A stretch of DNA of 64,000 bases from Desulfobacterales bacterium (GCA_049366795.1 JBMNCP010000062.1:6201-70200); one strand, 5' to 3'; shown: positions 4,950-62,396, numbered from the stretch's first letter. Numbers and translations are program-made. Notes: generated from the letters alone by a model not told the origin.

Positions 4950-5456
4950 ATGGCCGAGGCACCGAATGAAAAACCGAGTCCCGATTACCGTCTCTTGGCG
5001 GTGGTGACCCTGATCATCCTGGTGCTCGACCAGGCGACCAAGGCGCTCGTGTTGCAACAGATACCGCTCCATGGTTCGATTCCTGTGATTTCGGGGTTCT
5101 TCAACCTCACCCACATCCACAATCCCGGCGGCGCCTTCGGCTTTTTGGCGGATCAGAGCATCGGCGTCCGCCGCCTGTTCTTCCTGATCATCTCATCGGC
5201 CGCCGTCGTTCTTGTTTTCTGGTTCTATCGTACCACTCCGCGAGATCGCCCCTTTCTGGCCCTGGCCTTCGCGCTCATCTTCGGAGGCGCCATCGGTAAC
5301 CTGATCGATCGCTTTCGATTCGGCAAAGTGGTGGACTTCCTCGATTTTTATTTAGGCCAATGGCACTGGCCGGCCTTCAACGTTGCCGATAGCGCCATCA
5401 CCGTCGGCATCGGGATCTTCCTACTTCACCTGTTAAGCGGCAAAATGCCCGATTAA
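4950..5456 (+). CDS. lspA: Lipoprotein signal peptidase (signal peptidase II)
   Basis: 168-aa polytopic membrane ORF with conserved NPGGAFG and FNVADS motifs. Classic position directly after ileS. Confidence 0.9.
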   Translation: MAEAPNEKPSPDYRLLAVVTLIILVLDQATKALVLQQIPLHGSIPVISGFFNLTHIHNPGGAFGFLADQSIGVRRLFFLIISSAAVVLVFWFYRTTPRDRPFLALAFALIFGGAIGNLIDRFRFGKVVDFLDFYLGQWHWPAFNVADSAITVGIGIFLLHLLSGKMPD

Positions 5457-6932: not shown

Positions 6933-8336
6933 ATGCCGAGAACCAAGATCGTATGCACCATCGGGCCGGCCAGCGGCACCCCCGAGGTCATCGAAGCCAT
7001 GATCCACAACGGTATGAGCGTGGCCCGCCTCAACTTTTCCCATGGGACCCATGAACAGCACGTCGTCAACATCCGGACGATCCGGGAGGTGTCTTCCCGC
7101 ATGGGAAAACCGGTGGCGGTCCTCCAGGATTTGTGCGGCCCCAAGATCCGCGTGGGAAGCCTGCCTGAAGACGGGCTCAGGCTGAAAACGGGCCAGACCA
7201 TCCGCTTGACGAGCGAGCTGGTGGCGGGAGCCGCCGATCGTATTCCGGTCTCCCACCAGGCGCTCCACACCGACGTGAAGACCGGAGACCGGATTCTGCT
7301 GGCGGACGGCATGATGGAGGTCACGGTCGATCGGGTGGATGGCCTGGACATTATCTGTACCGTGGTGACCGGGGGACTGCTGACCTCTCACAAGGGCGTA
7401 AACCTTCCAGCCCGGACGTTGACGGTTGACGCGATAACCGACAAGGATCGGGAGGACCTGCGGCTCGGGCTGGAAAACGGCGTGGATTTCGTCGCCTTGT
7501 CCTTTGTACGTTCCGCCGCCGACGTGAACAAGTTAAAGGCGCTCATCCGGGAGCACGGCCGGAACACGCCGGTCATCGCCAAGATCGAAAAGCACGAGGC
7601 GCTGGAGGATGTGGACCGTATCGTCGACGCGGCTGAGGCCATCATGGTCGCCCGAGGCGATCTCGGAGTGGAGATCCCTTTGGAGAATGTGCCGAACATT
7701 CAGAAGATGCTGATCCACAAGTGCAACGCCGCGGGAAAGCCCGTCATCATCGCCACTCAGATGCTGCGATCCATGGTGGACTCGCCACGGCCGACGCGGG
7801 CCGAGGCCGCCGACGTCGCCAACGGCGTCCTGGACGGTGCCGATGCCGTGATGCTCTCGGAGGAAACCGCCAGTGGAAGCTATCCCGTCGAAGCGGTCCG
7901 CTATATGGCCATGATCGCCAAAAGTGCCGAGACCCGCTATCCCCACGACCGCTATTCCCGTCAGATTCCAAGTCCCGATGTATCCGAAGCGGTGGCGGCG
8001 GCGGCCTGCACGCTTGCCGACAATGTTCGGGCCGCCGCGATCGTCGCCACCACCCGTTCCGGCGCAACCGCCATCCACATCGCCCGATTCCGGCCCCGCG
8101 CTCCCATTCTGGCCCTTTCGCCGGATGAGCGGAGCATCCGCCGGCTATGCCTCACCTGGGGATGCATTCCCTGCCCGCTCAAGATCAGCGAAGACACCGA
8201 CGAGATGGTGGAACGTGCCGCGGAGGCCGCTCTGGAAACCGGACATGTCGGCAGCGCGGACCGGGTGGTGATCACGGCGGGCCGCCCGTTGTGGGCGGAG
8301 GGCACCACCAATATGCTGTGGGTCAAGGAACTGTGA
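6933..8336 (+). CDS. pyk: Pyruvate kinase
   Basis: MPRTKIVCTIGPAS, NFSHG, MVARGDLGVEIP and MLSEETA motifs. ATG 6933 lies 2 nt after the holA stop. The track start at 6819 is an upstream extension. Confidence 0.93.
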   Translation: MPRTKIVCTIGPASGTPEVIEAMIHNGMSVARLNFSHGTHEQHVVNIRTIREVSSRMGKPVAVLQDLCGPKIRVGSLPEDGLRLKTGQTIRLTSELVAGAADRIPVSHQALHTDVKTGDRILLADGMMEVTVDRVDGLDIICTVVTGGLLTSHKGVNLPARTLTVDAITDKDREDLRLGLENGVDFVALSFVRSAADVNKLKALIREHGRNTPVIAKIEKHEALEDVDRIVDAAEAIMVARGDLGVEIPLENVPNIQKMLIHKCNAAGKPVIIATQMLRSMVDSPRPTRAEAADVANGVLDGADAVMLSEETASGSYPVEAVRYMAMIAKSAETRYPHDRYSRQIPSPDVSEAVAAAACTLADNVRAAAIVATTRSGATAIHIARFRPRAPILALSPDERSIRRLCLTWGCIPCPLKISEDTDEMVERAAEAALETGHVGSADRVVITAGRPLWAEGTTNMLWVKEL

Positions 8337-39264: not shown

Positions 39265-40058
39265 TCGTCGCCGAGCACCTGAGAAAGATATTCAACCGCG
39301 GCGGCGTCAACGAAGCCACAGCCCTGGACGATCTCTCCATTCACGTCGAGAAGGGAGAATTCGTGACGATCATCGGCTCCAACGGAGCCGGAAAGTCGAC
39401 CCTTCTCAACTGCCTGGCCGGCACCTATCCGGTGGAAGGGGGAACGATCCGGCTCGATGGCCGTGACGTCACTTCATGGCCGGAGTATCGCCGTGCGAGG
39501 TATCTGGGGCGCGTCTTCCAGGATCCGCTGGTCGGCACCAGCGCTTCCCTCACGATCGAGCAGAATCTGGCGCTGGCAGTCAAGAGAGGCCGGAGAAGAG
39601 GGTTGCGCATCGGCGTCAGAAACGCCCACCGGGATCTGTTCCGGGCGCAGCTTTCGGTCCTGGGGCTGGGGCTCGAAGATCGCTTGAAGCTGAGCGTTGG
39701 CCTGCTTTCCGGAGGTCAGCGCCAGGCGCTCACCATGGTGATGGCAACGCTCATCCGCCCCAAGCTGCTCCTGCTGGACGAGCACACGGCCGCCCTGGAC
39801 CCGAAAACGGCGCGCCAGATCCTCGAACTGACCCGGGAAATCATCGATGGCCGCCGATTGACGGCCCTCATGGTCACGCACAACATGCACCACGCCCTCG
39901 ACCTGGGGAACCGTTTGATCATGCTCCACAGGGGGAGAATCATTCTGGACATCCGCGGGGCCGAAAAAGCGAATACCTCCGTCGACGATCTGCTCGAAAG
40001 ATTTTACTCGCAGCAGGGAGAATCGTTCGCGACCGACCGGGGGTTGCTTTCCGGATAG
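39261..40058 (+). CDS. ABC transporter ATP-binding protein
   Basis: Walker A GSNGAGKST, signature LSGGQRQAL, Walker B LLLDEHTAALDP. ATGA overlap with the permease gene. Confidence 0.9.
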   Translation: MIVAEHLRKIFNRGGVNEATALDDLSIHVEKGEFVTIIGSNGAGKSTLLNCLAGTYPVEGGTIRLDGRDVTSWPEYRRARYLGRVFQDPLVGTSASLTIEQNLALAVKRGRRRGLRIGVRNAHRDLFRAQLSVLGLGLEDRLKLSVGLLSGGQRQALTMVMATLIRPKLLLLDEHTAALDPKTARQILELTREIIDGRRLTALMVTHNMHHALDLGNRLIMLHRGRIILDIRGAEKANTSVDDLLERFYSQQGESFATDRGLLSG

Positions 40059-40215
40059 TTAAGCTAGTTAGGATAGTTATGTTAGTTGAGATAGTTATGT
40101 TAGTTGAGATAGTTATGTTAGTTAAGATAGTTAAGTTAGTTAAGTTAGTTTAGATAGTTGAGTTAGTTTAGATAGTTGAGTTAGTTTAGATAGTTTAGAT
40201 AGTTTGGTTAGTTTG
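40054..40215. repeat. Tandem array E: 18 consecutive 9-bp units G(A/T/C)TAGTTNN
   Basis: Read directly: GATAGTTAA GCTAGTTAG GATAGTTAT GTTAGTTGA ... GATAGTTTG GTTAGTTTG. Contains three tandem 18-bp GATAGTTATGTTAGTT(G/A)A copies; the third differs at one base. The first unit contains the TAG stop of the ABC ATPase gene. Confidence 0.95.
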
Positions 40216-43369: not shown

Positions 43370-43557
43370 GCATTTCCTTTCCGTTGGTTGTCTCCGTTGG
43401 GAGCCTTGTGGTATGAGGCCATCGTTGGAGATAATCACTCCCGATTGGGGGAAAGTTGAGCCGGTAGGTATCGTTTAGAAGGTGGATACTACCCACGCGC
43501 ATGCCGATGGGCGCTGACTGTCTTACTTATTCAAAAGTCCCAACGACCCCAACGATC

Positions 43558-43680
43558 TTAACCATTTTAACTATCCTAACTAACTTAACTAACCTAACTA
43601 TCTTAACTAACTTAACTATCCTAACTAACTTAACTATCCTAACTAACTTAACTATCTTAACTAACTAAACTATCTTAACC
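43558..43680. repeat. Tandem array F: ~13 units of 9-bp NNAACTA(T/A)C, the reverse complement of array E units
   Basis: TTAACTATC CTAACTAAC TTAACTAAC CTAACTATC ... TAAACTATC TTAACC. TTAACTATC is the exact reverse complement of the GATAGTTAA unit in array E. Confidence 0.95.
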
Positions 43681-51256: not shown

Positions 51257-54200
51257 TTAATCCGCGTTCGCGGCGTCCGCAACCAGGCGAACACCGAAAT
51301 TCAGCAGCTTATAAATGAAAAGGCCGTCCACTTTCAAGGCGCCGTCGATCCGGAATTCGGATCCGTTGTCCCCATCCTCCTCTTCGCAGGAGGCTTCGAC
51401 GACGATGGTCTTGTTGGAAGGCAATATCTGTCCGCGATACTGCCAGGTATGCGGGCTTCCGACGCGAAGCTCCAGCCTGTGGCCCGGATACCGGGTGCGC
51501 CAGATGTCGAGGGCGGCGCACCGGGCCATCTGGATCAGGGATTCGATGCCAAGGGAGCCCGGGCAAACAGGATCCTGGTGAAAATGAGCCTTGAAGTACC
51601 ATGCGGCGGGGTCGACATCCTTGAACCCTCGCATCTCCAGAACCCTTCCGCCGGCGGTCTGCCGGGGAGCCACCTGGATCCGGTCGATCATGCGAATGGC
51701 CCGAGCCGGAAGGCCGGGCGGGAAATCCGGTTCGTCCACGCGGTCTTCCGGCAAGAAAGGCGGCAGGTCCGTCAGGGTTTCGACCGGAACTGCGGTGGAT
51801 TCGGCCCCGACGCCGGCATCGAATGTCTCGCGGATGCCTCTTTGTTCGTCCAGGGCCTCCGCGGTAAAGAACCCGAAGCCGGTCCTGCCGGTGTAGACGG
51901 GGCTGCCTTCCCGCGACACCTCGAATTCGAACTGTTCGATGATCATATCCCCCGCGGACGAGGCGCGCAGGAGGCGGCAGCGTGTCGTCAGCGTGAAGGC
52001 GCCCCGGCGGACATTTTCATGAATCGTGGCGGTTCCGTCCAGATTGCGGAAGTGAAGGTCCTGTTCGCTTTTCAGCGCCGAACCCATGTAGGCTGCCAGA
52101 AATCCGCAGGACTGAAGCGCGATTTCCATGAGAACGCAAAGCGGCATCACGTCCGAACGGTTGGCTTGAAAATACCAGTGCCAGGGCTTGACGTCGAATT
52201 CCGTCTGGAGCCATCCGCCGGGCTCGAGCACCCAGGGTTCGGGCTCGGCAACGGTCACCCGGTCGATAAAGGAGTAGGGCGGCGCGGGAAGCCTGGCGAT
52301 GAACCGTCCGTCGTCGAACGGCCGGTAGCGGCTGCCGAAGGCGTCCGAGGGCCTTCCGGAGGCGAAGGCGAGGATGTGGCGGCGTTCGAAAACCGCCGGG
52401 ACTGTCCTGCCCGGCACTGGACGGTGTTCCGAACGCTTCCTCCAGAACTGCTTTAAGTCAGATTCCCCAACATTCGATAATTTAAGCGACATCCCCTTGA
52501 ATCGGACGATCCGCCGTCCGTCTGCGATCATCATGGCGTCGGCGATCGCGAAGGGTTCGGGATTCGATCCGATGTCGGTGATCTCGATTTCGTAAACCAC
52601 TTTTTTCGTTTCGGGCGTGACCGGCCCCCTGCATTTGAGAACCGCGGGCGCGGTCGTCAGCGGCTCGAAGCGAGCCTCCTCGTTCGGGCTGACCCATCCC
52701 ATCCCCTGCAACAGGACGCGGAGGGCGTGGGCGCAGCACTCATACATCAACGTGCCGGGCATGACCTGGTCATCCACGAAATGGCAGGTGAGAAACCAGT
52801 CGTCCGGCCGGATGTCCGCCTCGGCGCGGATGGCCCCCAGCCCGCCCGTGCCGCCGAAAGGATCCAGGTCGAGAACCCGGTGGATCAGACGCATCCGTCC
52901 GGCTGGCAGGCGCTGGCCTTCCGGGAGTCTGATGCCCGCGAAATCCGCTCCGAATGCCTTCTCGAGATCGCCGTCCCTCAGCGCATCGAGAGCCTCGTCG
53001 TCAATCCGTCGGGAGCGAACGGCGACCAGCGGCTCCGCCCCGCCCGCCGGAACCGGTGTTTCTTCGGGTTCGCCTGGCAGAATTCCGCCCGAGTTGCGGA
53101 CCTCTTCCTCGGTGAAGAAGCCGGCGCAGCCGTTTCGCATCGTGATCAACGGTTGTCCGGCGATCGATCCGTCGAATTCGAAAAAGAACATCCAGGTATC
53201 GCCCTGTTTGATGAATTTTTCGATCCGGATGTCGTAGCGGATCGTTTCTCCGGGAAGCGGCAACCCCCGGTGAAAGGTGACCGTGGCGTCGAGAAGCCGG
53301 TAGGTGCGCAGGCCCCTGACGTGGAGATCGATCCCAAGATAGGCGCACAAAAAGAGGTCGGCCTGGCCCGCCTCCACCGAAATGCAGACCGGCGCCCGGC
53401 CGCCGTCCAGGTACCACTGGTCCGGCAGGACATCGTGTTCCGTGACAATCCTTCCCGGTCCCAGCTGCCCTTTCCGGCCTTCGATCCGAAGGATCCGGTC
53501 CACCAGCATCAGGGGCTCGTCCGGCAGCCGGACCCGTACGCGATACCGGTCCACCTCCGCAAAATCGGGACCGAACAGGCGAGCAACGGATCCCACCGCG
53601 AACTCCATGCATTGCCCGCGGGTGAAGACAGGGGCGGGAATGCCGGAATGCGAAAATGCGGGAAAGCGGGGATGCGGGGGCGTGGAAAGCGCGGTTTCCG
53701 GGGTATCCGGGACGTTGGGCGCTGGAACGGCTGAAGACGTTTTGCCGCCCGGTTTCGTTCCCGGGGGCGACGCCGCCAGCAGGCGGGATTTGAGTTCAAC
53801 CGCATCGGCGTACGACCGGATCCAGTCCTGAGATAGTGAAAGGAATCGCTCATGGGCCGCGCTGGTCTGCTCCGAGCTTTCGACGAGGTCCTGGACCAGC
53901 CGGTCGATCGATGGCTGGGCGAACGTCGGGTACGGGGTCGGCGGACCGGAGACGGACGCCGGTACCCGGTAAGAGGCCGCTTCCGGGGCGGGGGAGGGTG
54001 CATCGACGGCCAGGGCCGGAAGCGCCGGCCAGTCGATCGACTTTCCGCCGTTGACCACCCGGATCGATGCGGACGGATCGACCGAAGCCGTTTCCACGGC
54101 CGCCGGCCGGACGGTCAGAAGCGACCACTCCACCGGGACGCGGTGCACGGCCAGCGTTGCGGCGATCCTGGCGATGGCGGCAAAGTCGCCTTGGTGCCGA

Positions 54201-57200
54201 TGGGAGGCGGAAAGGGCCAGGTGAGGTCTGCCGTCGAGAATCTGCTGGATCATGCGCGTGCAGGAGGCCCCCGGCCCGGTTTCGATAAAGATGCGGACCC
54301 CGTCCCGGTAGACCCGCTCGACCAGCTTCGGGAAATCGAATCCGTCGAGCCCCTGCCGGAGGATGGACTCCGCCATGGCGTCGGACTCGATCCGGATCGG
54401 GGCGGCGTCCGCGCAGCCATAGAGCGTGATGCCGTTCAACTCCCGGACCGGCAGCCGGTGCAGGTCCCGGTAGGCATCGGCGGAAGGGGAAAGCGCGTCG
54501 CAGTGAACGCTGATCACCCCGTCCAGCGGTACGGCGTTGGCGCCGAGGCGCCGGACCAGCGCCTCCACCTGGGGGCGGTCCCCGCCGATGACGGATGCCT
54601 CGGGTGTGTTGACGATGAGCAGGCGAACGCGGGAAAATTCCTCCAGGGCCGATTGGATGGCGTCGGCCGGGCGGTCGACCACGACCGCGTGCCATTCGAA
54701 CGTTTCGGTTTCGGATAGCCCCCAGGCTTTGCGGGCCGAACGGCAGGCGCCGTAGAGCGCATGGGTGAACAGGTCCGTCTTCTGAATCCGCTTCAGCATC
54801 TCGTCGGGATGGGGCCATGCCCCGGTTGCGAAATAGGCGGCGGATTCGCCCAGGCTGTAGCCGAAAGCGGCGCGGGGCCTCAGCCCCAGGCGTTCGAGAA
54901 GGCGCGTCACCACCAGGCCGTGGGTGACGTGACCGCAAAAAAGATCCCTGGGATCCCGGGACAACCCGGCCATGGCCGCGGACTCCCAGCCGGGGGGCCA
55001 CTCGCTGCGGCACGGCAGAAGCCGTCCGGGGCGGGCTCGGTCCCGAAGCCTTCCCGTCTCCCGGTCCATTTCATCGAGAATGCCGGGCCAGAACAGTCCG
55101 ATCTCCCGCCCCATTCCCGGAAACTGGTTTCCCGATCCGGGATAGACCAGCGCCACTGCGGACGACGCGCCCAACGGGGCAGAGGCGTAGCAGGCGGCCG
55201 AGGTCGGCGTGAACCGGATTTCCGTTCCGTTCCGGATGGCAGTCCTGGCGGCTGCGATGGACCGTTTCAGCTCCCGGGGGTCGGAGCCCTCGACCGCGAC
55301 GGCGAGGCGAGCTCCGAAATCAGGGGGGTGTTCCCGAAGCCAGGCGGCCGCGGCGTGCCCGATCGGCCCGTCGAACTGCGAAGCCTCCCGTTCGAGCCGG
55401 TCCAGCCGGCTCAGGAGCGCATCCGGATCGGCCCCGTCGACCAGAAACATCCCCAGGGGCGGAAGGGACGCGGCATGGAGGCCCGCGGTCACGGGTACGG
55501 CGGCATCGGACGGTGCTTCCCGCAGCACCGCGGCCATGGCGACCCCATCCGGGGTCATGGCGCTGACGCAGGCACGTCGCGGGCCGTCTTCGCTATTCCG
55601 CAGCCAATAATGGGTGGCACGGGGAAGATGGAACCGCTCGGAATCCCACCCGGGCTCCTCGCCGACCGCGTATCCGGGAAGACCGGGGATCCGTCTCCGG
55701 TGGAGGCAAAGGGCGGTTTTCACGACGGCTGCCAGACCGGCGGCCGCCCCCGCGTGTCCGATCGCGGACTTGACGGAGCCGATCGCGCAGGGAAACGGGC
55801 GGGCCGGAAAGACGCGGTGGAATGCCTCCCTTTCCGCTCGGTCCTCCGGGGGAAACCCGCTGCCGTGGGATTCGACGTATTCGATTGCTTCCGGACCGAC
55901 CCCGGCGTCCCGGAATGCAAGCGCAATGGCGTCGGAACAAGCGGTCGAAGCAGGCGCCTCCGTGGGAGCGAATGCCCCGGAAACGGATCCCAGCCCATCC
56001 AGAACGGCGTAAATGCGGTCTCCGGAGGATGTGGCGTCGGATAGCCGCTTGAGCACCAGGGCGGCCGCACCTTCGCCGGGAAGACTGCCGTCGGCTTTCC
56101 GATCGAAGGGATGGACTGCCGGCCGGCCGGACCATCCTCGAATGGCGTCCGCCGCAGCCATTTCCCGAAGGTCGCCCGGGAGATCCACCGCTCCGACCAG
56201 GACCGCGTCGACCTCGTGTCTTTGAAGCGACCGGGCGCCGATTTCGAGCGCCTTCATCCCGGAGGCGGCTTCACACGAGAGAACGAAGCTCGGGGCGCCG
56301 AACCGGAAGGCCTTTGCAATCCGGCTCGCGATCAGGCTTCCCAGGGCGCCCAGCGTCCGCACATGGGTGAGGGGGGGAGAAATGCCGTCGGCCAGGCGTT
56401 TTGCGCCACCCGCCGCCTCGACGGATTCAGTCCGAAGTCCATGTTTTCCTTCGAACTCCCGCAACAGGCGCCGCAGGCTCCAGCGCAGCTGAAACTGGGT
56501 TTCCTCGAAATCGAAACCCATGCCGATGACCGCCCCCATCCGGGGGCGTGCCGGTTCATCGGCCATGCCGGCGTCGGACAGGGCTTCCATCGCCACTGCC
56601 AGCATGAGCAGATGCTGCGGCAGAATATCGGGAATCTCCCTGGGCGGAATCGGAAATCTTCCCAGGGGGATGTCCAGGCGATCCAGGTAGTTTCCTTTCG
56701 GTGGGGAGCGGCGGAACAGGAGGTCCTGAACGGTGCGGCATCCTTTCCATCGGCTGGCGGGCGCTGAACCGAACTCATGGGCTTCCTTGAAAACCGCCTC
56801 CTCGAAAGCCTTCAACGAACCATATCGACCGAAGGCGGCCGACATGCCGACAATCACGACCGGCTCCTCGGCAGGCGGCGCCGGTGCGGCGACCGGCACG
56901 GACGTTTTTCCGGGAAGCCATTCCTCGACCAGGAGGTGAGCGTTGATACCGCCGAAGCCGAAAGCGCTGACCGCCGCTCGCCGCGGTGTGGCGGAATCCC
57001 TTTGATGCCAAGGTTCGGCGACCGTCTGGACCCTGAAGGGACCGTTTTCCAGCGGGCTTCCAGGACGCGGGCGGTTGAAGTTCAATGACGGCGGGAGCGT
57101 TCGGTGTTTCAGGCCGAGCAGGATTTTGATCAGGCCCGCGATGCCGGCCGCGGTGAGCAGATGGCCGATCGTCGACTTGACCGAGCCGATGGCGCACTGA

Positions 57201-58261
57201 CCCGGCGACCATGACGCACCTTCCCACAGCGCCCCGAGACTTTTGAGCTCGACCGCATCCCCGACCAGTGTGCCGGCACCGTGGCATTCGACCAGGTCCA
57301 CCTGGTCAGGGGTCCATCCGGCATCGGCGTAGGCCGCCCGCATCGCCCGCAGCTGGCCCTCCATCTCAGGCGCGAGCAGGCTGCCCCGCATGTCGTTGGA
57401 GAGGCCCATGCCTCGGATGATGCCGAGGATCGGGTCGCCGTTCCGAACGGCGTCCTCCAGGCGCTTGAGGACGACGAGCCCGGCGCCTTCTCCCACCACC
57501 AGACCGTCGGCATCCGCATCGAACGGAGCGGCGCGTCCGGACGGTGAAAGGGCCTGAAGCTGACTGAAGCCGATCTGCGTATAAAGGCAGTCGGGTCGCG
57601 AAACCCCGCCTGCGATCATGGCGTCCGCCCGGCCGGAACGAAGGGCGTCGCAGGCGAATTTGATTCCGAAAAGGGATGAGGCGCAGGCCGCGTCGAGCGT
57701 AAAGCTTCCGGCGCGGTAGCCGAAGGCACGGGCCAGTAGGGCCGCCGGCAGCGCCGTCACCCTGGAGGCCATCGCTTCGAGCGGCGTGACGGGATTTCGG
57801 GAACCGGCGGGTGATTCCGGAAACCAGCGGCGTTCGAGTTCCTTTCCGAACAGCTTCCGGGACAGTGCCGACGCCGCATCCGTGGGAAGGGCGATGGCGG
57901 CCAAAACCACGCCGATCCGCCCTGGATCCACGCTGTCGAGCCTTCCGGACTCCGCGATCTCCCTGCCGCAGTGGAGCACCAAATGATAAAGGGGATCCAG
58001 GGCCAGAAGGTGCTCCGGCGGAAGGAAATAACCGGTCGGGTCGAAGTCGAAGTCGAGAATCAAACCGGCCCGGTTGGACACGGCCCGGTCCGGCTCGTTG
58101 CGGCTCGAAACGACCGACGCCGCCGGAGCGATCCATCGATCCTCAGGCACCGGCCCCGTGCAGTCGAGGCGATGGATCAGGTGGTCCCAGAACTCGTCCA
58201 GGGACCGGCTCCCCGGGAAAATCCCGGAAGCTTCGATGACGGCGATGGGATGGGAAGTCAT
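51257..58261 (-). CDS. PUFA-synthase-type megasynthase, PfaC/Pfa3-like: KS - CLF - AT - (FabA-like DH)x2, 2334 aa
   Basis: See the domain features below. No ACP, KR or ER segment is recognisable in this ORF. Confidence 0.88.
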   Translation of the reverse strand: MTSHPIAVIEASGIFPGSRSLDEFWDHLIHRLDCTGPVPEDRWIAPAASVVSSRNEPDRAVSNRAGLILDFDFDPTGYFLPPEHLLALDPLYHLVLHCGREIAESGRLDSVDPGRIGVVLAAIALPTDAASALSRKLFGKELERRWFPESPAGSRNPVTPLEAMASRVTALPAALLARAFGYRAGSFTLDAACASSLFGIKFACDALRSGRADAMIAGGVSRPDCLYTQIGFSQLQALSPSGRAAPFDADADGLVVGEGAGLVVLKRLEDAVRNGDPILGIIRGMGLSNDMRGSLLAPEMEGQLRAMRAAYADAGWTPDQVDLVECHGAGTLVGDAVELKSLGALWEGASWSPGQCAIGSVKSTIGHLLTAAGIAGLIKILLGLKHRTLPPSLNFNRPRPGSPLENGPFRVQTVAEPWHQRDSATPRRAAVSAFGFGGINAHLLVEEWLPGKTSVPVAAPAPPAEEPVVIVGMSAAFGRYGSLKAFEEAVFKEAHEFGSAPASRWKGCRTVQDLLFRRSPPKGNYLDRLDIPLGRFPIPPREIPDILPQHLLMLAVAMEALSDAGMADEPARPRMGAVIGMGFDFEETQFQLRWSLRRLLREFEGKHGLRTESVEAAGGAKRLADGISPPLTHVRTLGALGSLIASRIAKAFRFGAPSFVLSCEAASGMKALEIGARSLQRHEVDAVLVGAVDLPGDLREMAAADAIRGWSGRPAVHPFDRKADGSLPGEGAAALVLKRLSDATSSGDRIYAVLDGLGSVSGAFAPTEAPASTACSDAIALAFRDAGVGPEAIEYVESHGSGFPPEDRAEREAFHRVFPARPFPCAIGSVKSAIGHAGAAAGLAAVVKTALCLHRRRIPGLPGYAVGEEPGWDSERFHLPRATHYWLRNSEDGPRRACVSAMTPDGVAMAAVLREAPSDAAVPVTAGLHAASLPPLGMFLVDGADPDALLSRLDRLEREASQFDGPIGHAAAAWLREHPPDFGARLAVAVEGSDPRELKRSIAAARTAIRNGTEIRFTPTSAACYASAPLGASSAVALVYPGSGNQFPGMGREIGLFWPGILDEMDRETGRLRDRARPGRLLPCRSEWPPGWESAAMAGLSRDPRDLFCGHVTHGLVVTRLLERLGLRPRAAFGYSLGESAAYFATGAWPHPDEMLKRIQKTDLFTHALYGACRSARKAWGLSETETFEWHAVVVDRPADAIQSALEEFSRVRLLIVNTPEASVIGGDRPQVEALVRRLGANAVPLDGVISVHCDALSPSADAYRDLHRLPVRELNGITLYGCADAAPIRIESDAMAESILRQGLDGFDFPKLVERVYRDGVRIFIETGPGASCTRMIQQILDGRPHLALSASHRHQGDFAAIARIAATLAVHRVPVEWSLLTVRPAAVETASVDPSASIRVVNGGKSIDWPALPALAVDAPSPAPEAASYRVPASVSGPPTPYPTFAQPSIDRLVQDLVESSEQTSAAHERFLSLSQDWIRSYADAVELKSRLLAASPPGTKPGGKTSSAVPAPNVPDTPETALSTPPHPRFPAFSHSGIPAPVFTRGQCMEFAVGSVARLFGPDFAEVDRYRVRVRLPDEPLMLVDRILRIEGRKGQLGPGRIVTEHDVLPDQWYLDGGRAPVCISVEAGQADLFLCAYLGIDLHVRGLRTYRLLDATVTFHRGLPLPGETIRYDIRIEKFIKQGDTWMFFFEFDGSIAGQPLITMRNGCAGFFTEEEVRNSGGILPGEPEETPVPAGGAEPLVAVRSRRIDDEALDALRDGDLEKAFGADFAGIRLPEGQRLPAGRMRLIHRVLDLDPFGGTGGLGAIRAEADIRPDDWFLTCHFVDDQVMPGTLMYECCAHALRVLLQGMGWVSPNEEARFEPLTTAPAVLKCRGPVTPETKKVVYEIEITDIGSNPEPFAIADAMMIADGRRIVRFKGMSLKLSNVGESDLKQFWRKRSEHRPVPGRTVPAVFERRHILAFASGRPSDAFGSRYRPFDDGRFIARLPAPPYSFIDRVTVAEPEPWVLEPGGWLQTEFDVKPWHWYFQANRSDVMPLCVLMEIALQSCGFLAAYMGSALKSEQDLHFRNLDGTATIHENVRRGAFTLTTRCRLLRASSAGDMIIEQFEFEVSREGSPVYTGRTGFGFFTAEALDEQRGIRETFDAGVGAESTAVPVETLTDLPPFLPEDRVDEPDFPPGLPARAIRMIDRIQVAPRQTAGGRVLEMRGFKDVDPAAWYFKAHFHQDPVCPGSLGIESLIQMARCAALDIWRTRYPGHRLELRVGSPHTWQYRGQILPSNKTIVVEASCEEEDGDNGSEFRIDGALKVDGLFIYKLLNFGVRLVADAANAD
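51302..52504 (-). other. Megasynthase domain: dehydratase region 2 (pseudo-DH + FabA-like DH)
   Basis: PWHWYFQANRSDVMPLCVLMEIALQ segment, then AAWYFKAHFHQDPVCPGSLGIE (His2226, codon 51584-51586). Boundaries are approximate. Confidence 0.7.
52562..53659 (-). other. Megasynthase domain: dehydratase region 1 (pseudo-DH + FabA-like DH)
   Basis: TEHDVLPDQWYLDG segment, then FabA-type DWFLTCHFVDDQVMPGTLM (His1827, codon 52781-52783). Boundaries are approximate. Confidence 0.7.
54212..55144 (-). other. Megasynthase domain: acyltransferase
   Basis: VYPGSGNQFPGMG and the GxSxG motif AFGYSLGE (Ser1136, codon 54854-54856). Boundaries are approximate. Confidence 0.75.
55547..56815 (-). other. Megasynthase domain: chain-length-factor-like KS (active-site Cys replaced by Ala)
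   Basis: SFVLSCEAASG aligns to SFTLDAACASS, so the catalytic position (aa 665, codon 56267-56269) is Ala. His motifs ESHGSG and KSAIGH are retained. Boundaries are approximate. Confidence 0.7.
56852..58252 (-). other. Megasynthase domain: ketosynthase (active)
   Basis: DAACASS with Cys193 (codon 57683-57685). ECHGAGT and KSTIGH His motifs. GFGGINAHLLVEE end. Boundaries are approximate. Confidence 0.8.
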
Positions 58262-58399
58262 GAAAACAGTTGGCTCTGAGAATGACAGACCCCGGGCGCA
58301 GCATCCCGCACCCGGGTCAATATGATCGATCGGTGATTTTTATTCGTTCAGAAGCCTTCTTTCATACTCGAAATTCCCTGTCTCCGCAACCTTATAAAA

Positions 58400-58451
58400 G
58401 GCTAAAGGCGAAAGGCTAAAGGCGAAAGGGGAAAGGGCAAAGGGCAAAGGC
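58400..58451. repeat. Heptamer tandem array A (GGNNAAA x7)
   Basis: GGCTAAA GGCGAAA GGCTAAA GGCGAAA GGGGAAA GGGCAAA GGGCAAA GGC. Confidence 0.95.
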
Positions 58452-58649
58452 TGATGGTGAAGGGGTGAAAGATAATCGAGTTGGGAGTTGGGGCGATCCG
58501 GAGAGCGATTTCGCTTTCGTGCTTCTGACCGGGAATACGACTTGTTTTTTCCAGATACGCTCACTCGCTGGAGCATGGGAGCGAGGACATGACCCTCATT
58601 TCTGAATCGGACACGCTCGTTCCCATATCAAACCATCGCGGATGGGCAC

Positions 58650-58713
58650 CAGTTCACGGATCAGGACAATCGGCACACGGTTCACATCCCACGGTTCACG
58701 GCTCACGAATCAC
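58650..58713. repeat. Degenerate ACGGTTC-type heptamer repeats (distal part of the left IR arm)
   Basis: CAGTTCACGG ... CACGGTTCACATCC CACGGTTCACGGCTCACGAATCAC. Confidence 0.8.
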
Positions 58714-58730
58714 TCTCCGCCTTCTCCCTT

Positions 58731-58829
58731 GATCTTTGATCTTTGATCTTTGATCTATTATTCCTCGAGCCTTTAGCCCTTTCACTTTGGCCTTTAGCCT
58801 TTCCCCTTTAGCCTTTTTGCTTTTCCCCC
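58731..58829. repeat. Heptamer tandem array B: (GATCTTT)x3.7 then CTTTNNC units. Left inverted-repeat arm.
   Basis: GATCTTT GATCTTT GATCTTT GATCT ATTATTC CTCGAGC CTTTAGC CCTTTCA CTTTGGC CTTTAGC CTTTCCC CTTTAGC CTTTTTG CTTTTCC. The reverse complement matches arrays A and C. Confidence 0.95.
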
Positions 58830-58907
58830 AACGCCTTGACTTTCCAAAACGGAAGATTTAAAAAATTCCTTTCCTCGCCAACAAGTTTCCCTGGAGGTGG
58901 AATCAAA

Positions 58908-59498
58908 ATGACGGATCCAAGGCAGTCCTCGGAGAGCGAAGACCAGTTGCGGGCCATGCTTGCACGGACCGGTTACTCGGCAAAAGCCATCGATTACTAC
59001 ATCCGGAAACCCCACATGGGTTCCATCGAAAACGCCGATCAGATTTCGGAAATGGTCGGCACCTGCGGCGATTCCATGACGGTGTTCCTCAAGGTGGACC
59101 AAGGTCGCATCGAGGACGTGAAATACCAGATTCTGGGCTGTGCCGGCTCTATTTCCGCGGCGATGGCGGCGGTCGATCTCGTGAAGGGGAAAACGGTCGA
59201 GGAAGCCCTTGCGGTCGATGACGGCGATGTGTTCAAGTCCCTTGAGGAGATTCCGGCAAAGAAGCACCACTGCATTCAGCTTTCCGTGAAGGCCCTGCAA
59301 AAGGCCATCAGGGCCTACCAGAAGTCCAAGGGCGGCCAAGCGCTGATCTCCGCCGAGGTGCCTGCGGGACCGCCGCTGGCGGCGGGCAAGGGCAACGGTG
59401 AGACCGCTTGCTGCAAGCCCTCCCCGGGCAAGGGGAGTTGCGGCGGGAACGGCGGGGGATGCTGCGGTCATTCGGGCGGCCCGAAAATCGGCAATTAG
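58908..59498 (+). CDS. NifU/IscU N-terminal-domain-like Fe-S scaffold protein with a Cys/Gly-rich C-terminal tail
   Basis: Three scaffold cysteines in GTCGDSM, LGCAGSIS and KHHCIQLS. ATG 58908 is preceded by GGAGGTGG. Tail GETACCKPSPGKGSCGGNGGGCCGHSGG. Confidence 0.8.
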   Translation: MTDPRQSSESEDQLRAMLARTGYSAKAIDYYIRKPHMGSIENADQISEMVGTCGDSMTVFLKVDQGRIEDVKYQILGCAGSISAAMAAVDLVKGKTVEEALAVDDGDVFKSLEEIPAKKHHCIQLSVKALQKAIRAYQKSKGGQALISAEVPAGPPLAAGKGNGETACCKPSPGKGSCGGNGGGCCGHSGGPKIGN

Positions 59499-59532
59499 AG
59501 CCGAACGATCTGGATTCCAATTTTCATGCGAC

Positions 59533-59570
59533 GGCCTCTTTTCCGGACCCGGAAAGGGGCCGCCTCTTTT
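59533..59570 (+). terminator. Putative terminator after the NifU-like gene
   Basis: GGCCTCTTTTC / GGAAAGGGGCC stem (two G-U pairs) with a 7-nt loop, followed by GCCTCTTTT. Confidence 0.45.
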
Positions 59571-59621
59571 GCGGGAAGGCCGATCCGTAACGGTTGAGGG
59601 ATCGGAACGGGCAAATCACTG

Positions 59622-60233
59622 ATGACCGGTTATCGAGACGAGCAGCTCGAATGCCATCGGCAGGTCCGTGATGCCATCGCCAGGATGGGCGAGGTTGAAA
59701 AGGCCGCCCTTTTGAATGAGATCACACCCTACCTGGAGCTTCGCCGCCAGGTCGACCGCTTCCAGGAGGCTTTTTTCAGCGACACGTGTTCGGAGGCCTG
59801 CTTCAACAGCCGATTGAGTGCGTGCTGCACCAAGGACGGCATCATCACCTTTTTTGCGGATCACGCGATCAATGCGCTGACCGCACCGCTCGAATCCTTG
59901 AAATCGCTCATCGATGCCCTGACCGGCCATCGTTCCACCGGCAAATGCATCTACCTGGATCCCGGTGGCTGCCGCTGGCATATCAAGCCCGTCATTTGCG
60001 AAATGTTTCTGTGCGAGCCTGCCGCGCGCAACATCTTCTCCCTTTACCCCGAGGCCGGCCGTGAGTGGCAGCGGCTTCAAGCCGCCATCAAGGCGTTTCG
60101 ATGGCCCATCAGGCCGGTTCTCTTCGATTCCCTCGAAAAACGGTTCATCGCCCTGGGCGTCGATTCCCCCCTGATGCATCTGCACAAAAGCCCGGGGCTC
60201 ATCCGTCTCAAACAGCGTCATGGGGTGGAGTGA
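59622..60233 (+). CDS. Cys-rich YkgJ/UPF0153-like (putative Zn/Fe-chelating domain) protein
   Basis: CSEACFNSRLSACC and GKCIYLDPGGCRWHIKPVICEMFLC resemble the two halves of the CxxCxxCC-family domain. 203 aa. Confidence 0.55.
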   Translation: MTGYRDEQLECHRQVRDAIARMGEVEKAALLNEITPYLELRRQVDRFQEAFFSDTCSEACFNSRLSACCTKDGIITFFADHAINALTAPLESLKSLIDALTGHRSTGKCIYLDPGGCRWHIKPVICEMFLCEPAARNIFSLYPEAGREWQRLQAAIKAFRWPIRPVLFDSLEKRFIALGVDSPLMHLHKSPGLIRLKQRHGVE

Positions 60234-60309
60234 GGAAAGGCGAAAGGCGAAAGGCTCAAGGCTAAAGGCTAAAGGCTCGAGGGATAGATCAAAGATCAAA
60301 GCAGAAAGC
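60233..60309. repeat. Heptamer tandem array C: GGNNAAA units then (GATCAAA). Right inverted-repeat arm.
   Basis: GAGGAAA GGCGAAA GGCGAAA GGCTCAA GGCTAAA GGCTAAA GGCTCGA GGGATAG ATCAAAG ATCAAAG CAGAAAG. Starts at the last base of the stop codon of the YkgJ-like gene. Confidence 0.95.
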
Positions 60310-60360
60310 CGAGAGTGACCGTGAGCCGGGAGCGGGGTAAGGCAAATTGCCGAGCGTTCT

Positions 60361-60468
60361 AATCCTCAATCCACTAATCCTATAATCCTTCTTTCTACTT
60401 TCTACTCGCTACTTTCTGCTCGTTACTCGTCTACTTTCTGCTCGTTACTCGCTACTTTCCACTCGCTC
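60361..60468. repeat. Heptamer tandem array D: AATCCNN units then CT(T/C)(T/G)CTA units, with a 22-bp tandem duplication (21-nt conserved core)
   Basis: CTTTCTA CTTTCTA CTCGCTA CTTTCTG CTCGTTA CTCGTCTA CTTTCTG CTCGTTA CTCGCTA CTTTCCA CTCGCTC. CTACTTTCTGCTCGTTACTCG occurs twice in tandem. Confidence 0.95.
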
Positions 60469-60493
60469 CCCGTCGCGCCTCGCGCCTTTCTCT

Positions 60494-61942
60494 TCAGGGG
60501 GTCTCCTGGACCAGCTCGCGGGCGGCTGTGCGGTAGTGGACGCGAACGCGGCTGCTGGCCGGGGAGACGATCCGAACCGCGCCCGGCTTGATCGCCAGTT
60601 CGGTGACGATGTCCCCCTCCTGGCTGAGGCTGTCCACGGGAATTTTCAGTGTGTAGAGGGTCTCGATGGGGTTCAGGACCTGTTTGGTCCCGGACACCTC
60701 GATCGTTGGTGGGATGACCCGGGTTTCGGCGATCCGCCTGCCCTTGGGCATGGGGCCGGTCCAGTCGACCTGGATCGGCAGCACCTTGCGGACGATCTCG
60801 TCCATCTCGAGCTTGATGACATCGGGCTCCACGTTGTTGAGGCTGATGCCCGGGGGCAGCTCGATGTTTCCTTGTCCCACCGTGAGCGTGTTGACGCCGG
60901 CGGTCGCCCTCGAAAGATCGAATCGCACCTTGACCTGATCCGGCATGATGGCCTGAACCAGCGTTTTGGGGCCGCTCAACTGAAGCCTGATCTTGGAAGC
61001 CGAGGTTTGAACGATTTCCATGGCCGGGTCCCGCTTGTCGTATTCGACGGGCACCTCGAGAGTGGCGAGCGCCTCGCCCGAGCCGACCGAAAAGCTGAAC
61101 CATATCGCCGAAACGACGAAGAGGCAGATTGCCGCCGCCGCCGCAATGCGAAATTTTTCTTCCCGTTTGCCGGTGGGAACACGCCGGCTCTCGCCCGACT
61201 GGGTCTTGAGAAGCGCCAGCAGGCTTTCGGGCGACCGGACCGGCGTCAACACGTCTCGCCGGGCGACCGTGACGTCGCCGCGCTCCTCCGATACCACCAC
61301 GACCACGGCGTCGGTCTGCTCGGCAAGGCCCAGGGCAGCCCGGTGCCGCGTACCGTAGTGGCTTGGGAGGTCGGTCCGGCTCGACAAGGGTAGAATGGCC
61401 CCCACATGGGCGACCTGATCTCCGTTGACGATTGCCGCGCCGTCGTGGACCGGGTTCCCCGGCCAGAAAACACTCTTGATCATCTCCCTCGAAAGCTTGC
61501 CCTGCCACGAGACGCCTCCGTAAACGATCCCTTCGAGGTCCTGGCGGCCGGGGAACACCAGTATGGCGCCGATTCTGGCACGCGCGAGATCGAATACGGC
61601 CGATACGAGTGCGTCGGTCGGCGTGTCCGTGGATTTCTTGGGGAAACGCCAAATCAGGTCCCCCATGTTCTTGGCCTGGAATGCCGTCCGGATTTCGTTG
61701 CGGAACACGATGATGACGACGATGGCGGCCAGGGCCGTGATGCCCTGGAGAACCCAGCTCGTGATGATCAGGCCGATCGAATAGGACAGCCGTTGGAGGA
61801 TAAAAAAAACGATGACGACCGTGAGGACGCGAAACAGCCGGGTGCCTCTCAGAACGATCAGCAGGCGGAACAGGATGTAGCTGTTGATCAGGATGTCAAC
61901 GACATCCTGCCAGCGCATGGCGGAAAACAGGGATTCGAACAT
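60494..61942 (-). CDS. cdaA: Diadenylate cyclase CdaA fused to a YbbR(CdaR)-like domain region
   Basis: Three N-terminal TM helices. DAC domain motifs VHDGAAIV, GTRHRAALGL and VVVVSEERGDVTVA. Then an extra TM (IAAAAAICLFVVSAIWF) and ~200 aa of YbbR-like beta-rich repeats. Confidence 0.8.
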   Translation of the reverse strand: MFESLFSAMRWQDVVDILINSYILFRLLIVLRGTRLFRVLTVVIVFFILQRLSYSIGLIITSWVLQGITALAAIVVIIVFRNEIRTAFQAKNMGDLIWRFPKKSTDTPTDALVSAVFDLARARIGAILVFPGRQDLEGIVYGGVSWQGKLSREMIKSVFWPGNPVHDGAAIVNGDQVAHVGAILPLSSRTDLPSHYGTRHRAALGLAEQTDAVVVVVSEERGDVTVARRDVLTPVRSPESLLALLKTQSGESRRVPTGKREEKFRIAAAAAICLFVVSAIWFSFSVGSGEALATLEVPVEYDKRDPAMEIVQTSASKIRLQLSGPKTLVQAIMPDQVKVRFDLSRATAGVNTLTVGQGNIELPPGISLNNVEPDVIKLEMDEIVRKVLPIQVDWTGPMPKGRRIAETRVIPPTIEVSGTKQVLNPIETLYTLKIPVDSLSQEGDIVTELAIKPGAVRIVSPASSRVRVHYRTAARELVQETP

Positions 61943-61943
61943 G

Positions 61944-62396
61944 TCAATCGGTGATGCTGAAGCGAAGTGTCGTCAGAACCCGGCCGTTGTCATCGGTGAT
62001 GTCGACACGCCAGGGGCCCTTGTCGGCGTCCCGGATCTGGATGCTGCTTGCCGAGGACCATTTGGGAGGGATCAGTTGAAGCCCCCTGCGGGTGACCAGC
62101 TGATCCCTTCGATACCAGTGATGATGGATGAACATCTTCTCGGGGATTTTTTCAAACGCAGTGAAGCAGTATATCTTGCCGACCGAAACCGGAAAAACAG
62201 AGCCGCTGTTGACCGGTTTGAATGCGCGGATGGATTCGCACATGGCCGCCTCGGTCAGGCGGAGCTCCTGGCGGTCCGCCGGCGGTGCGGCCTCCTGCAT
62301 CTCTTCGCTTGCTGCAGGTTGACCCAGCAGGAGCCAGGCAATGGCGGCAATCATCACCCCTCTGACCGGAAGGGCTATGGCTTGGGTGAATTTCAA
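61944..62396 (-). CDS. DUF2914 domain protein with signal peptide
   Basis: GKIYCFTAFEKIPEKMFIHHHWYRRDQLV...WSSASSIQIRDADKGPWRVDITDDNGRVLTTLRF fits the DUF2914 pattern. Stop lies 1 nt before the cdaA start. Confidence 0.65.
   Translation of the reverse strand: MKFTQAIALPVRGVMIAAIAWLLLGQPAASEEMQEAAPPADRQELRLTEAAMCESIRAFKPVNSGSVFPVSVGKIYCFTAFEKIPEKMFIHHHWYRRDQLVTRRGLQLIPPKWSSASSIQIRDADKGPWRVDITDDNGRVLTTLRFSITD

Follow-up and report, generated by a model that had tools for sequence, protein, structure and literature searches.

Inverted composite blocks of heptanucleotide arrays around a nifU-like gene pair in an uncultured Desulfobacterales bacterium

Introduction

What are the tandem arrays of 7-nucleotide (nt) units that fill two spacers in a Desulfobacterales metagenome-assembled genome (MAG), how did they arise, and why does a purine-rich array precede a pyrimidine-rich one in both places? 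We analyzed one 64,000-nt stretch of this MAG (JBMNCP010000062.1:6201-70200), called the window below. A nifU-like gene and a gene for a cysteine-rich hypothetical protein lie side by side in it, with arrays A and B on their left and arrays C and D on their right. We give a probability of about 60% to the reading that these are two composite blocks of long simple-sequence arrays, which would have formed by slippage and local inverted duplication, would have been filtered by orientation, and may act as spacers or insulators. The order of the arrays, purine-rich before pyrimidine-rich in both spacers, had been given in a preliminary description of the locus and was borne out by composition counts.

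What bacterial heptanucleotide arrays do has been an open question since 1990, when short tandemly repeated repetitive (STRR) sequences were described. These are said to be heptanucleotide tandem arrays in the non-coding DNA of cyanobacteria, with several unit families per genome (Mazel et al., 1990). Their copy number is reportedly high, at about 100 across a heterocystous cyanobacterium's genome. We take the units of STRR1-3 to be CCCCAGT, TTGGTCA and CAACAGT. The window arrays resemble these sequences in having heptanucleotide tandem units in non-coding DNA, although the host, a Desulfobacterales MAG, is not a heterocystous cyanobacterium. Tandem dimers of STRR1-3, in any rotation and on either strand, were not found in the window arrays.

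Results

Existence and composition of the arrays

Tandem Repeats Finder (TRF), run over the whole window, detected period-7 arrays only at 58397-58816 (array A, a weak ACGGTTC-like run, and arrays B1 and B2) and at 60236-60467 (C1, C2, D1 and D2). A lag-7 self-match scan of the whole window and of 20 shuffles of it served as an independent check. Across the 64 kb the self-match exceeded 0.65 only at 58386-58469, 58702-58828, 60215-60309 and 60382-60431. It was 0.8 or higher only at A and C, a level that none of the 20 shuffles reached. The TRF coordinates agreed to within a few bases with the positions and unit families listed before. The left block occupies the divergent spacer at 58397-58829 and the right block the convergent spacer at 60234-60468. 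The arrays are long simple-sequence repeats, with head-to-tail units within the 5-11-nt range (periods 7 and 9/18, 4-9 copies per array) and lengths beyond those expected by chance.

The strands differ strongly in purine and pyrimidine content, as had been claimed: purines make up 84% of A and 76% of C1, but 19% of B2 and 21% of D2. The claim of strict 7-bp periodicity fails for D: the units of D1 are 7/8 nt long, and in D2 there is a higher-order repeat of 22 nt (60403-60459, x2.7, 94% matches, TRF score 105). The ACGGTTC-type heptamers are present as a run, though a marginal one.

The arrays are real and consist of non-coding heptanucleotide simple-sequence DNA. The 78- and 47-residue open reading frames (ORFs) that cross A and the ACGGTTC-like run had no match in Pfam, and the Rfam 15 covariance models gave no match at E <=1 within 58100-60700. 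TRF, the ends of the ORFs and the absence of Pfam matches on the crossing ORFs together supported the earlier view of STRR-like, non-coding arrays at gene boundaries. No terminator-like site was present within either block, and no G-quadruplex motif (G3+N1-7 x4) in or near the arrays. The units AAAGGCN, TTGATCT, CTTTCTA/CTCGCTA and TAATCCN lack runs of three or more G, and therefore have no G-quadruplex potential. The known heptamers STRR1-3, TAACTGA, GGGAATC, GGGGAYT, ATCTTTC and GGACCGG were all absent at the window arrays. Written as RNA, array units read (CCUUUAG)n and (CUUUCUACUCGCUA)n. The tetramer GATC occurs 597 times in the 64-kb window against roughly 230 expected from base composition, and its sites in B1 span 58731-58752.

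Inverted copies of one composite element

The segment 58691-58829 aligned with the reverse complement of 60234-60345, which means that the right block holds an inverted copy of approximately 140 nt from the left one. The common order is GGCTCACG.., TCACTCTC(C/G)GC, (TTGATCT)n, TAT.CCTCGAG and (CCTTTNG)n. Arrays B and C are thus inverted copies of one composite element, C1 copying B2 and C2 copying B1. In the right block the shared CTCGAGG lies at 60277-60283, mostly within C1. Because the two copies share non-repeat linkers, both come from one composite element and not from independent slippage. TTGATCT is present in four units in the left copy and two in the right, a difference in number that ongoing slippage would be expected to produce.

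Array A is the inverted partner of B2 over 48-54 nt that are 78-85% complementary (48 nt at 85%), and the outermost 33 nt reach 94%. In the right block, block C contains, in a single copy, the complement of D2's 14-nt unit pair (60300-60316 versus 60404-60420, inverted pair I24). This suggested an earlier complementarity between the two arms of that block, followed by amplification of different pieces. We also considered an origin in which two extended break ends were joined, and disfavored it, as the arrays lie at the outer edges of the blocks and unique sequence lies in the middle.

Comparison with relatives

Contigs of three relatives (L001, L003 and L004) were chosen by their homologues of the cysteine-rich protein, which are 61%, 59% and 53% identical. 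Gene order in all three is that of the window: a polyketide synthase (PKS)-like gene (-), nifU (+), the Cys-rich gene (+), cdaA-ybbR (-), a DUF2914 gene (-) and a second PKS-like gene (-). However, the divergent spacer measures 195-261 nt in the relatives and 646 nt in the window, and the convergent spacer 45-115 nt against 260 nt. No tandem arrays were found in the syntenic spacers of the three relatives. The blocks look like additions of ~430 nt on the left and ~215 nt on the right to short ancestral spacers. Since the syntenic loci are array-free and have shorter spacers, the blocks are recent additions, and the arrays are specific to this uncultured Desulfobacterales lineage. Neither the left core (58452-58728) nor the right core (60310-60359) showed similarity to the relatives' spacers, and neither had a further copy in the window or in the ~120 array loci from other genomes considered below.

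The additions left the neighboring functional sequences in place. Array C begins directly after the stop codon at 60231-60233, and D2 ends 25 nt before the cdaA stop at 60494-60496; both placements had been described before and were confirmed. C-terminal length is shared with all three relatives in the case of CdaA, and with L001 and L003 in the case of the Cys-rich protein, whose L004 homologue is 35 residues longer overall. Because these lengths are kept, array C can be said to start after the native stop codon with the protein unaltered. On the other side, B2 stops 6 nt upstream of the -35 hexamer of a promoter-like element. A TTGAC(A/T)-17 nt-TA..AA layout upstream of nifU, read directly in the sequences, is kept in the window and in the three array-free relatives. 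From this conservation TTGACT-17-TAAAAA is probably the nifU promoter, although a consensus promoter scan did not list it. Overall, the arrays fill the space between functional boundaries and cross none.

A possible in-situ seed of array A was rejected. The L001 motif CGCAACC-ATAAAGGGCT, compared with CGCAACCTTATAAAAGGCT in the window, gave a local alignment score of 22 against a null of 16.1 +/- 2.2 (maximum 27), and its distance from the start of the PKS gene is not the same; the likeness is therefore probably due to chance. Directly upstream of the conserved nifU -35 in L001, at the place that array B takes in the window, there is an 11-nt direct repeat, CATCTGGATTT (x1.9, 5217-5237), which may be a regulator site.

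Orientation of the arrays

Species-representative genomes were scanned for (AAAGGCN)x3. At least 120 stretches matched, against ~17 expected for a random 18-base pattern in 596 Gb. The orientation tests were made on loci other than the window, among the matches listed, and this scope applies to all counts in this section except those for the window itself. Arrays were taken as adjacent when the gap was <=300 nt.

In all 12 close inverted pairs of the same unit family, the purine-rich (A-rich) arm was 5' and the T-rich arm 3'. When adjacent arrays of opposite composition were counted whatever their unit family, 24 ran from purine to pyrimidine and none the reverse, at 20 loci. By crude ORF calls, purine-rich arrays were nearer the left ORF at 46:22, and pyrimidine-rich arrays nearer the right ORF at 50:15. 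Restricting this test to convergent genes gave 8:2 and 10:3, respectively, and the convergent class carries weight because over-extension of ORFs cannot bias it. GC skew predicted the nearer ORF with an odds ratio of 9.4 (p = 9e-8), compared with 4.2 for AT skew, and GC skew decided 12 of the 14 arrays in which the two disagreed. Such arrays persist in one orientation only. Six arrays out of six in the window conform, with a G-rich strand whose 5' to 3' direction leads away from the nearest ORF and a C-rich, G-poor strand that leads into it. Arrays without complementarity, C and D among them, follow the rule too, and it therefore cannot stem from hairpin formation.

Arrays of the same family more than 1 kb apart were direct in 22 cases and inverted in nine. 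We therefore rejected the idea that inverted arrays generally bracket operons.

Folding of the two blocks

Long imperfect hairpins or cruciforms had been proposed for both blocks, and the proposal stood for one of them as RNA. The A-B block folded as RNA into one long hairpin with a minimum free energy of -177 kcal/mol, against -139 +/- 5.7 for shuffles (z = -6.6). The C-D block was no more stable than shuffles on either strand (z = -0.55 and +0.61), and only 17 nt of it are complementary. A cruciform in duplex DNA is unlikely for arms ~312 nt apart, as those of A and B are. The A/B hairpin is probably a by-product of inverted duplication, and would be relevant only if the block is transcribed.

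Table 1. Positions of the arrays, their linkers and cores, and the flanking genes in the window
Feature	Position	Strand	Unit or content	Further details
Array A	58397-58451		AAAGGCN x7.9, 87% matches	G22:C7 on +; 135 nt from PKS-like gene start; TRF, composition
Left-block unique core	58452-58728		weak ACGGTTC-like run and segment 58691-58728 (GGCTCACGAATCACTCTCCGCC...)	segment inverted in right block
Weak ACGGTTC-like run	58671-58707		x5.3, 63% matches	score 32; TRF
Array B1	58729-58756		TTGATCT x4, 100% matches	four GATC sites at 7-nt spacing; TRF
Left linker	58757-58767		non-repeat ATTATTCCTCG	shared core CCTCGAG at 58763-58769, 2 nt into B2; alignment
Array B2	58768-58829		AGCCTTT/CCTTTNG x7-9	TRF: 58768-58816, AGCCTTT x7; C23:G7 on +
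Promoter-like element of nifU-like gene	58836-58864	+	TTGACT-17 nt-TAAAAA
Array C1	60234-60282		AAAGGCN x6-7	TRF: 60236-60277, AAAGGCT x6, 91%; G19:C8 on +
Linker and array C2	60283-60309		GGGATAG linker; C2 is AGATCAA x2.3	TRF: 60286-60301
Right-block spacer	60310-60359		60310-60345 (first 36 nt) match 58691-58728 in inverted form
Array D1	60360-60390		TAATCCN x4, 7/8-nt units	TRF: TAATCCT x4.1, period 8, 15% indels, score 30; C10:G0
Array D2	60391-60468		CTTTCTA/CTCGCTA ~x11	C28:G8 on +
PKS/polyunsaturated fatty acid (PUFA)-synthase-like gene	start 58261	-	2334 amino acids
nifU-like gene	58908-59498	+	NifU_N, Pfam E = 1.3e-27	syntenic in relatives
Cys-rich hypothetical gene	59622-60233	+	no Pfam family
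Diadenylate cyclase-YbbR fusion gene (cdaA-like)	60494-61942	-	Pfam	convergent with Cys-rich gene
Second system, left array	40054-40213		9/18-nt units GATAGTTAA/GTTAGTTGA, x8.9 of 18-mer	G42:C1; TRF
Second system, right array	43557-43679		reverse complement of left array	C32:G0; 45 nt upstream of next + gene; TRF

Neighboring genes

In all relatives, two giant PKS/PUFA-synthase-like genes flank a conserved island made up of the nifU-like, Cys-rich, cdaA-YbbR and DUF2914 genes (window 51257-62396); in L003, an additional ADP-ribosylglycohydrolase gene is inserted. The label "YkgJ-like" given earlier to the gene at 59622-60233 was not confirmed, as no Pfam match was obtained at E <=0.01. Its product is 100% identical to a protein from a Desulfobacterales MAG and has 528 unnamed homologues, mostly from Desulfobacterales and related MAGs. 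A terminator-like 12-bp hairpin with a T tract lies at 59532-59562, between the nifU-like and Cys-rich genes, and was the sole good site found. Because of it, the two genes may not form a simple operon.

A second array pair

The window holds another pair of arrays, with 9-nt units (Table 1). They are inverted copies, 80% identical, and bracket a DUF711-ACT-FMN_dh operon. The left array's first unit includes TAG, which is the stop codon of the ABC ATPase gene upstream. The convergent spacer at this locus is 39-73 nt in relatives and 290 nt in the window, and the 9-nt arrays were absent in relatives with the same gene order, whose DUF711 proteins are 85-88% identical. The length of the DUF711 C-terminus is unchanged, and that of the ABC ATPase is unchanged in two of three relatives.

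Arrays of the same kind in other genomes

The (AAAGGCN)x3 matches listed came from at least 10 phyla, among them cyanobacteria, Bacteroidota, Verrucomicrobiota, Acidobacteriota, Gemmatimonadota and Desulfobacterota, and also from Gamma- and Betaproteobacteria and Leptospira. At many of these loci, different heptamer families are chained in one spacer. A Thermoanaerobaculia locus (L017) has nested composite fold-backs like those of the window at 3200-3384 and 7010-7250. The complete genome of Desulfonema magnum (CP061800.1) carries an inverted pair, (TGAAACT)4 ... (GTTTCAA)8, and many (CCTAACA)n arrays. A search of the JGI metagenome collection for the composite linker GATCT-N2-8-CCTCGAGCCTTTAGCC returned two chance matches without arrays, and a dispersed element is therefore unsupported.

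At the D. magnum locus (L133, 273-9979), three copies of an IS110-family transposase are bounded by (CCTAACA)n, with an array 125 nt upstream of the transposase start in two cases. The same locus has at least 10 copies of a 242-nt higher-order repeat carrying (CCTAACA)n, and an array with a 66-68-nt period that resembles a CRISPR. The association with IS110 recalls ISGme8/9, which lie at fixed distances from the tandem-repeat sites of Geobacter metallireducens (PMC2700814).

Discussion

Origin and orientation of the blocks

In the history that we favor, slipped-strand replication would amplify 7-nt units, and new variants would be amplified in turn to give chains of related arrays. Local template switching or gene conversion might then have placed the ~140-nt composite piece, inverted, beyond the two genes, after which the two copies would have drifted apart in unit number. 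Growth of an array would continue until a selected sequence was met, such as a stop codon or the -35 of a promoter. The arrays may act as spacers or insulators: an untranslated transcript would turn C>G-rich just before the neighboring gene, and this could allow loading of Rho.

Each of the two convergent transcripts is G-rich at first and then turns C-rich and G-poor. Rho utilization (Rut) sites have a loose definition and show a C>G bias (PMC13650167, PMC6144790). Per 80 nt, the C/G counts of plus-strand RNA went from 13/27 to 26/6 and 33/12, and those of minus-strand RNA from 12/33 to 30/15, the C-rich part amounting to 27/13 to 30/15. Rut-like composition, that is, ~80 nt of C>G-biased RNA, is thus present, and the C-D region has no significant structure; this is a likeness of composition only, and Rho dependence is putative. 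Nascent-RNA composition, acting through Rho, is in our view the likeliest orientation filter, though the odds that it is the filter stand well below even.

Several points weigh against the history as a whole. The evidence comes from 64 kb of one genome assembly. A polarity of 24:0 is hard to obtain from neutral slippage alone and implies a putative selective filter or polar mechanism. A Rho filter gives no obvious reason for the G-rich arm to come first, and the inverted copy would have had to be placed 1.4 kb away. The ORF calls were crude and may inflate the rule at 5' flanks, but the convergent class and the ORF-independent test hold.

Other explanations

Inverted arrays might instead be selected as structured elements that form long hairpins in RNA or single-stranded DNA and serve as bidirectional terminators, RNase III sites or messenger RNA stabilizers, comparable with repetitive extragenic palindromic (REP) sequences, bacterial interspersed mosaic elements (BIMEs) or hmw. 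The fold of the A-B block (z = -6.6) speaks for this, and so does the A-rich 5', T-rich 3' order in 12/12 close inverted pairs among the matches listed, which is the polarity of a bidirectional intrinsic terminator; several of those pairs lie between convergent genes and abut stop codons. There is also a precedent in Haemophilus influenzae, where (ATCTTTC)n of hmw1A acts through a long 5'-untranslated region (UTR) hairpin with a G-rich arm that is cut by RNase III, and expression follows repeat number (PMC12721329). However, C and D are unpaired and still have the same polarity, as do at least 11 pairs of unrelated units elsewhere, which argues that complementarity is not what is selected. GC skew outperforms AT skew, contrary to the logic of a U tract, the arrays contain no terminator-like site, and the A/B loop is 312 nt long. 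The A-B block lies between two divergent promoters and so may go untranscribed, a further point against a hairpin element, which we regard as unlikely. Less likely again is a fold-back mobile element, in which two related non-autonomous insertions, similar to miniature inverted-repeat transposable elements and with heptamer arrays as terminal inverted repeats, would flank the gene pair. The blocks do look like clean additions of ~430 nt and ~215 nt with a 140-nt segment in common, and the A-B block has terminal inverted repeats (48 nt, 85%), A and B2 being most alike at their outer ends (33 nt, 94%) with a unique core between them. IS110-type elements in D. magnum and ISGme8/9 in G. metallireducens (PMC2700814) lie at fixed distances from such arrays. 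Yet no target-site duplication is visible at either block, no transposase is nearby, and in the right block the units differ from one arm to the other. Other copies of the cores or linker did not turn up in the window, in the ~120 loci or, apart from the two chance matches, in the JGI metagenomes.

The units of 7 or 9 nt could also be iterated binding sites, either for a nucleoid or "global regulator" protein of the IHF/HU type or for a cold-shock protein with an oligonucleotide-binding (OB) fold that covers 7 nt. The paired 7-9-nt sites of G. metallireducens were interpreted as protein-binding sites (PMC2700814), and CspB, according to the review in PMC4679880, binds heptamer repeats with one protein per heptamer and prefers T-rich ones. 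The pyrimidine arms of the window are T/C-rich, for example ATCTTTG, GCCTTTA and CTTTCTA. Nevertheless, unit sequences vary freely within and between arrays and genomes, unlike a specific site, close relatives lack the arrays without a change in nearby gene content, and no candidate gene for a binding protein was identified; protein binding thus seems quite improbable. Inversion of the enclosed operon by recombination between inverted copies (B/C and the 9-nt pair) deserves very little credence, although two operon-sized segments (1.4 kb and 3.3 kb) within 64 kb are bracketed by such copies, 74-80% identical. With the promoter inside the bracket, an inversion would not act as an expression switch; for homologous recombination such an identity is low, and no recombinase gene is adjacent to the arrays. 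Gene orientation is identical in all relatives, and distant arrays of one family elsewhere (>1 kb apart, among the matches listed) are mostly direct (22 versus 9). Equally hard to credit is an assembly artefact. In its favor, the sequence comes from a MAG and assembly of repeats is difficult; exact unit numbers could be wrong. Against this, the arrays contain imperfect units whose variants are specific to position, the inverted copies are not identical to each other, the ORFs on either side are unbroken, and isolate and complete genomes from many phyla show the same architecture. Because of the points against each of these alternatives, we consider them weaker than slippage with local inverted duplication under an orientation filter.

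Relation to known repeats

The preliminary description knew of no equivalent in GC-rich bacteria, and in this it was wrong. By the survey of Mrazek (2007), as relayed in PMC4679880 and PMC4692102, heptanucleotides are the most abundant class of long simple-sequence repeats in many bacteria, including the GC-rich Burkholderia and Xanthomonas, and polymerase slippage is proposed as their origin. The window arrays are like this class in their 7/9-nt units and in lengths far beyond chance; composite fold-back blocks and the orientation rule are not described in what PMC4679880 relays of that survey. Xanthomonas has ~185 GGGAATC arrays per genome, of which 89-93% are intergenic and most are transcribed, with 70-75 convergent inverted pairs (Rehm et al. 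2015, PMC4692102). Because convergent inverted heptanucleotide pairs in a GC-rich genus were already published, the claim of novelty fails.

The GGGAATC repeats of Xanthomonas and the GGGGAYT repeats of Nostoc PCC 7120 are ~90% intergenic and form convergent pairs; they often lie 0-50 nt from an ORF end, and some overlap the stop codon. Their G-rich strand is almost always nearer its 5' neighboring ORF, whatever the gene orientation, and their position is kept between related strains while length varies (PMC4692102). The window shares with them the intergenic 7-nt units by ORF ends, the orientation rule and an inverted pair (A/B), and its host shares a GC-rich genome with Xanthomonas. In contrast to those repeats, the window arrays have no G3 runs or G-quadruplex unit, chain several unit families per block, and are not kept in the nearest relatives compared.

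G. metallireducens, a related former deltaproteobacterium, has three to five tandem 7-, 8- or 9-nt units in intergenic opposite-strand pairs at variable distance (Aklujkar et al. 2009, PMC2700814). Classes 1-3 have the units GTTGCTYN, TCTCCGTS[Y] and MTYCTGA, and 8-24 pairs per class share a consensus. The sites are associated with ISGme8/9, are absent in a sister species, and were read as IHF/HU sites without a test (PMC2700814). The window likewise has opposite-strand pairs of tandem 7-9-nt repeats, but its units match none of the three consensus units, and the G. metallireducens sites are short. This species adds to Burkholderia and Xanthomonas as a counterexample to the supposed lack of equivalents. 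MacGregor (2015) described TAACTGA and mixed heptamers in Beggiatoaceae, cyanobacteria and Bacteroidetes, intergenic and sometimes with families mixed in one spacer; in Bacteroidetes, close relatives have the same gene neighborhood with shorter, repeat-free spacers (PMC4679880). The 'Maribeggiatoa' repeats differ in lying just upstream of start codons, where they are thought to affect translation, and TAACTGA has no G/C skew and is absent in the window (PMC4679880).

The only heptamer array with a dissected mechanism is that of hmw1A. As in the window, its C/T-rich heptamer strand runs into the gene and a long hairpin forms with a G-rich partner arm. However, the hmw1A array is transcribed, in the 5' UTR of a phase-variable adhesin gene, whereas array B is situated on the upstream side of a housekeeping gene's promoter. 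REP sequences, BIMEs and REP doublets (REPINs) are intergenic, often just after stop codons, and form inverted doublets able to fold into hairpins; BIMEs have been linked to Rho-dependent attenuation. REPs are imperfect palindromes of 20-40 nt that share a single conserved sequence, number in the hundreds and depend on a link with the REP-associated tyrosine transposase (RAYT). The window arrays differ from them in being tandem 7-nt units of variable sequence, with dispersal unsupported in the searches made.

Implications

No new principle is demonstrated here; the locus is a genuine example in a lineage without an earlier report. It proves inverted copying of a composite block, and it adds two spacers and a 9-nt system in which the orientation rule is followed. 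For Xanthomonas and Nostoc this rule had been noted before; it now extends to ~20 further genomes from many phyla. That it tracks G/C rather than A/T skew, and needs no complementary arms, reduces the number of possible explanations, among which Rho loading is directly testable.

A bolder proposal, which we think doubtful, is that heptamer and nonamer arrays would form a cross-phylum class of orientation-constrained intergenic elements rather than neutral debris of slippage, maintained through insulation by Rho loading or through a dedicated synthesis of the G-rich strand with fixed polarity. If this were true, the window would show two operons insulated on both sides. For annotation, the lesson is that such arrays are real and non-coding, and are not by default CRISPR-like or mobile. 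For the biology of this lineage, the locus offers a before-and-after comparison, in which the same genes, promoter and stop codons occur with and without the arrays.

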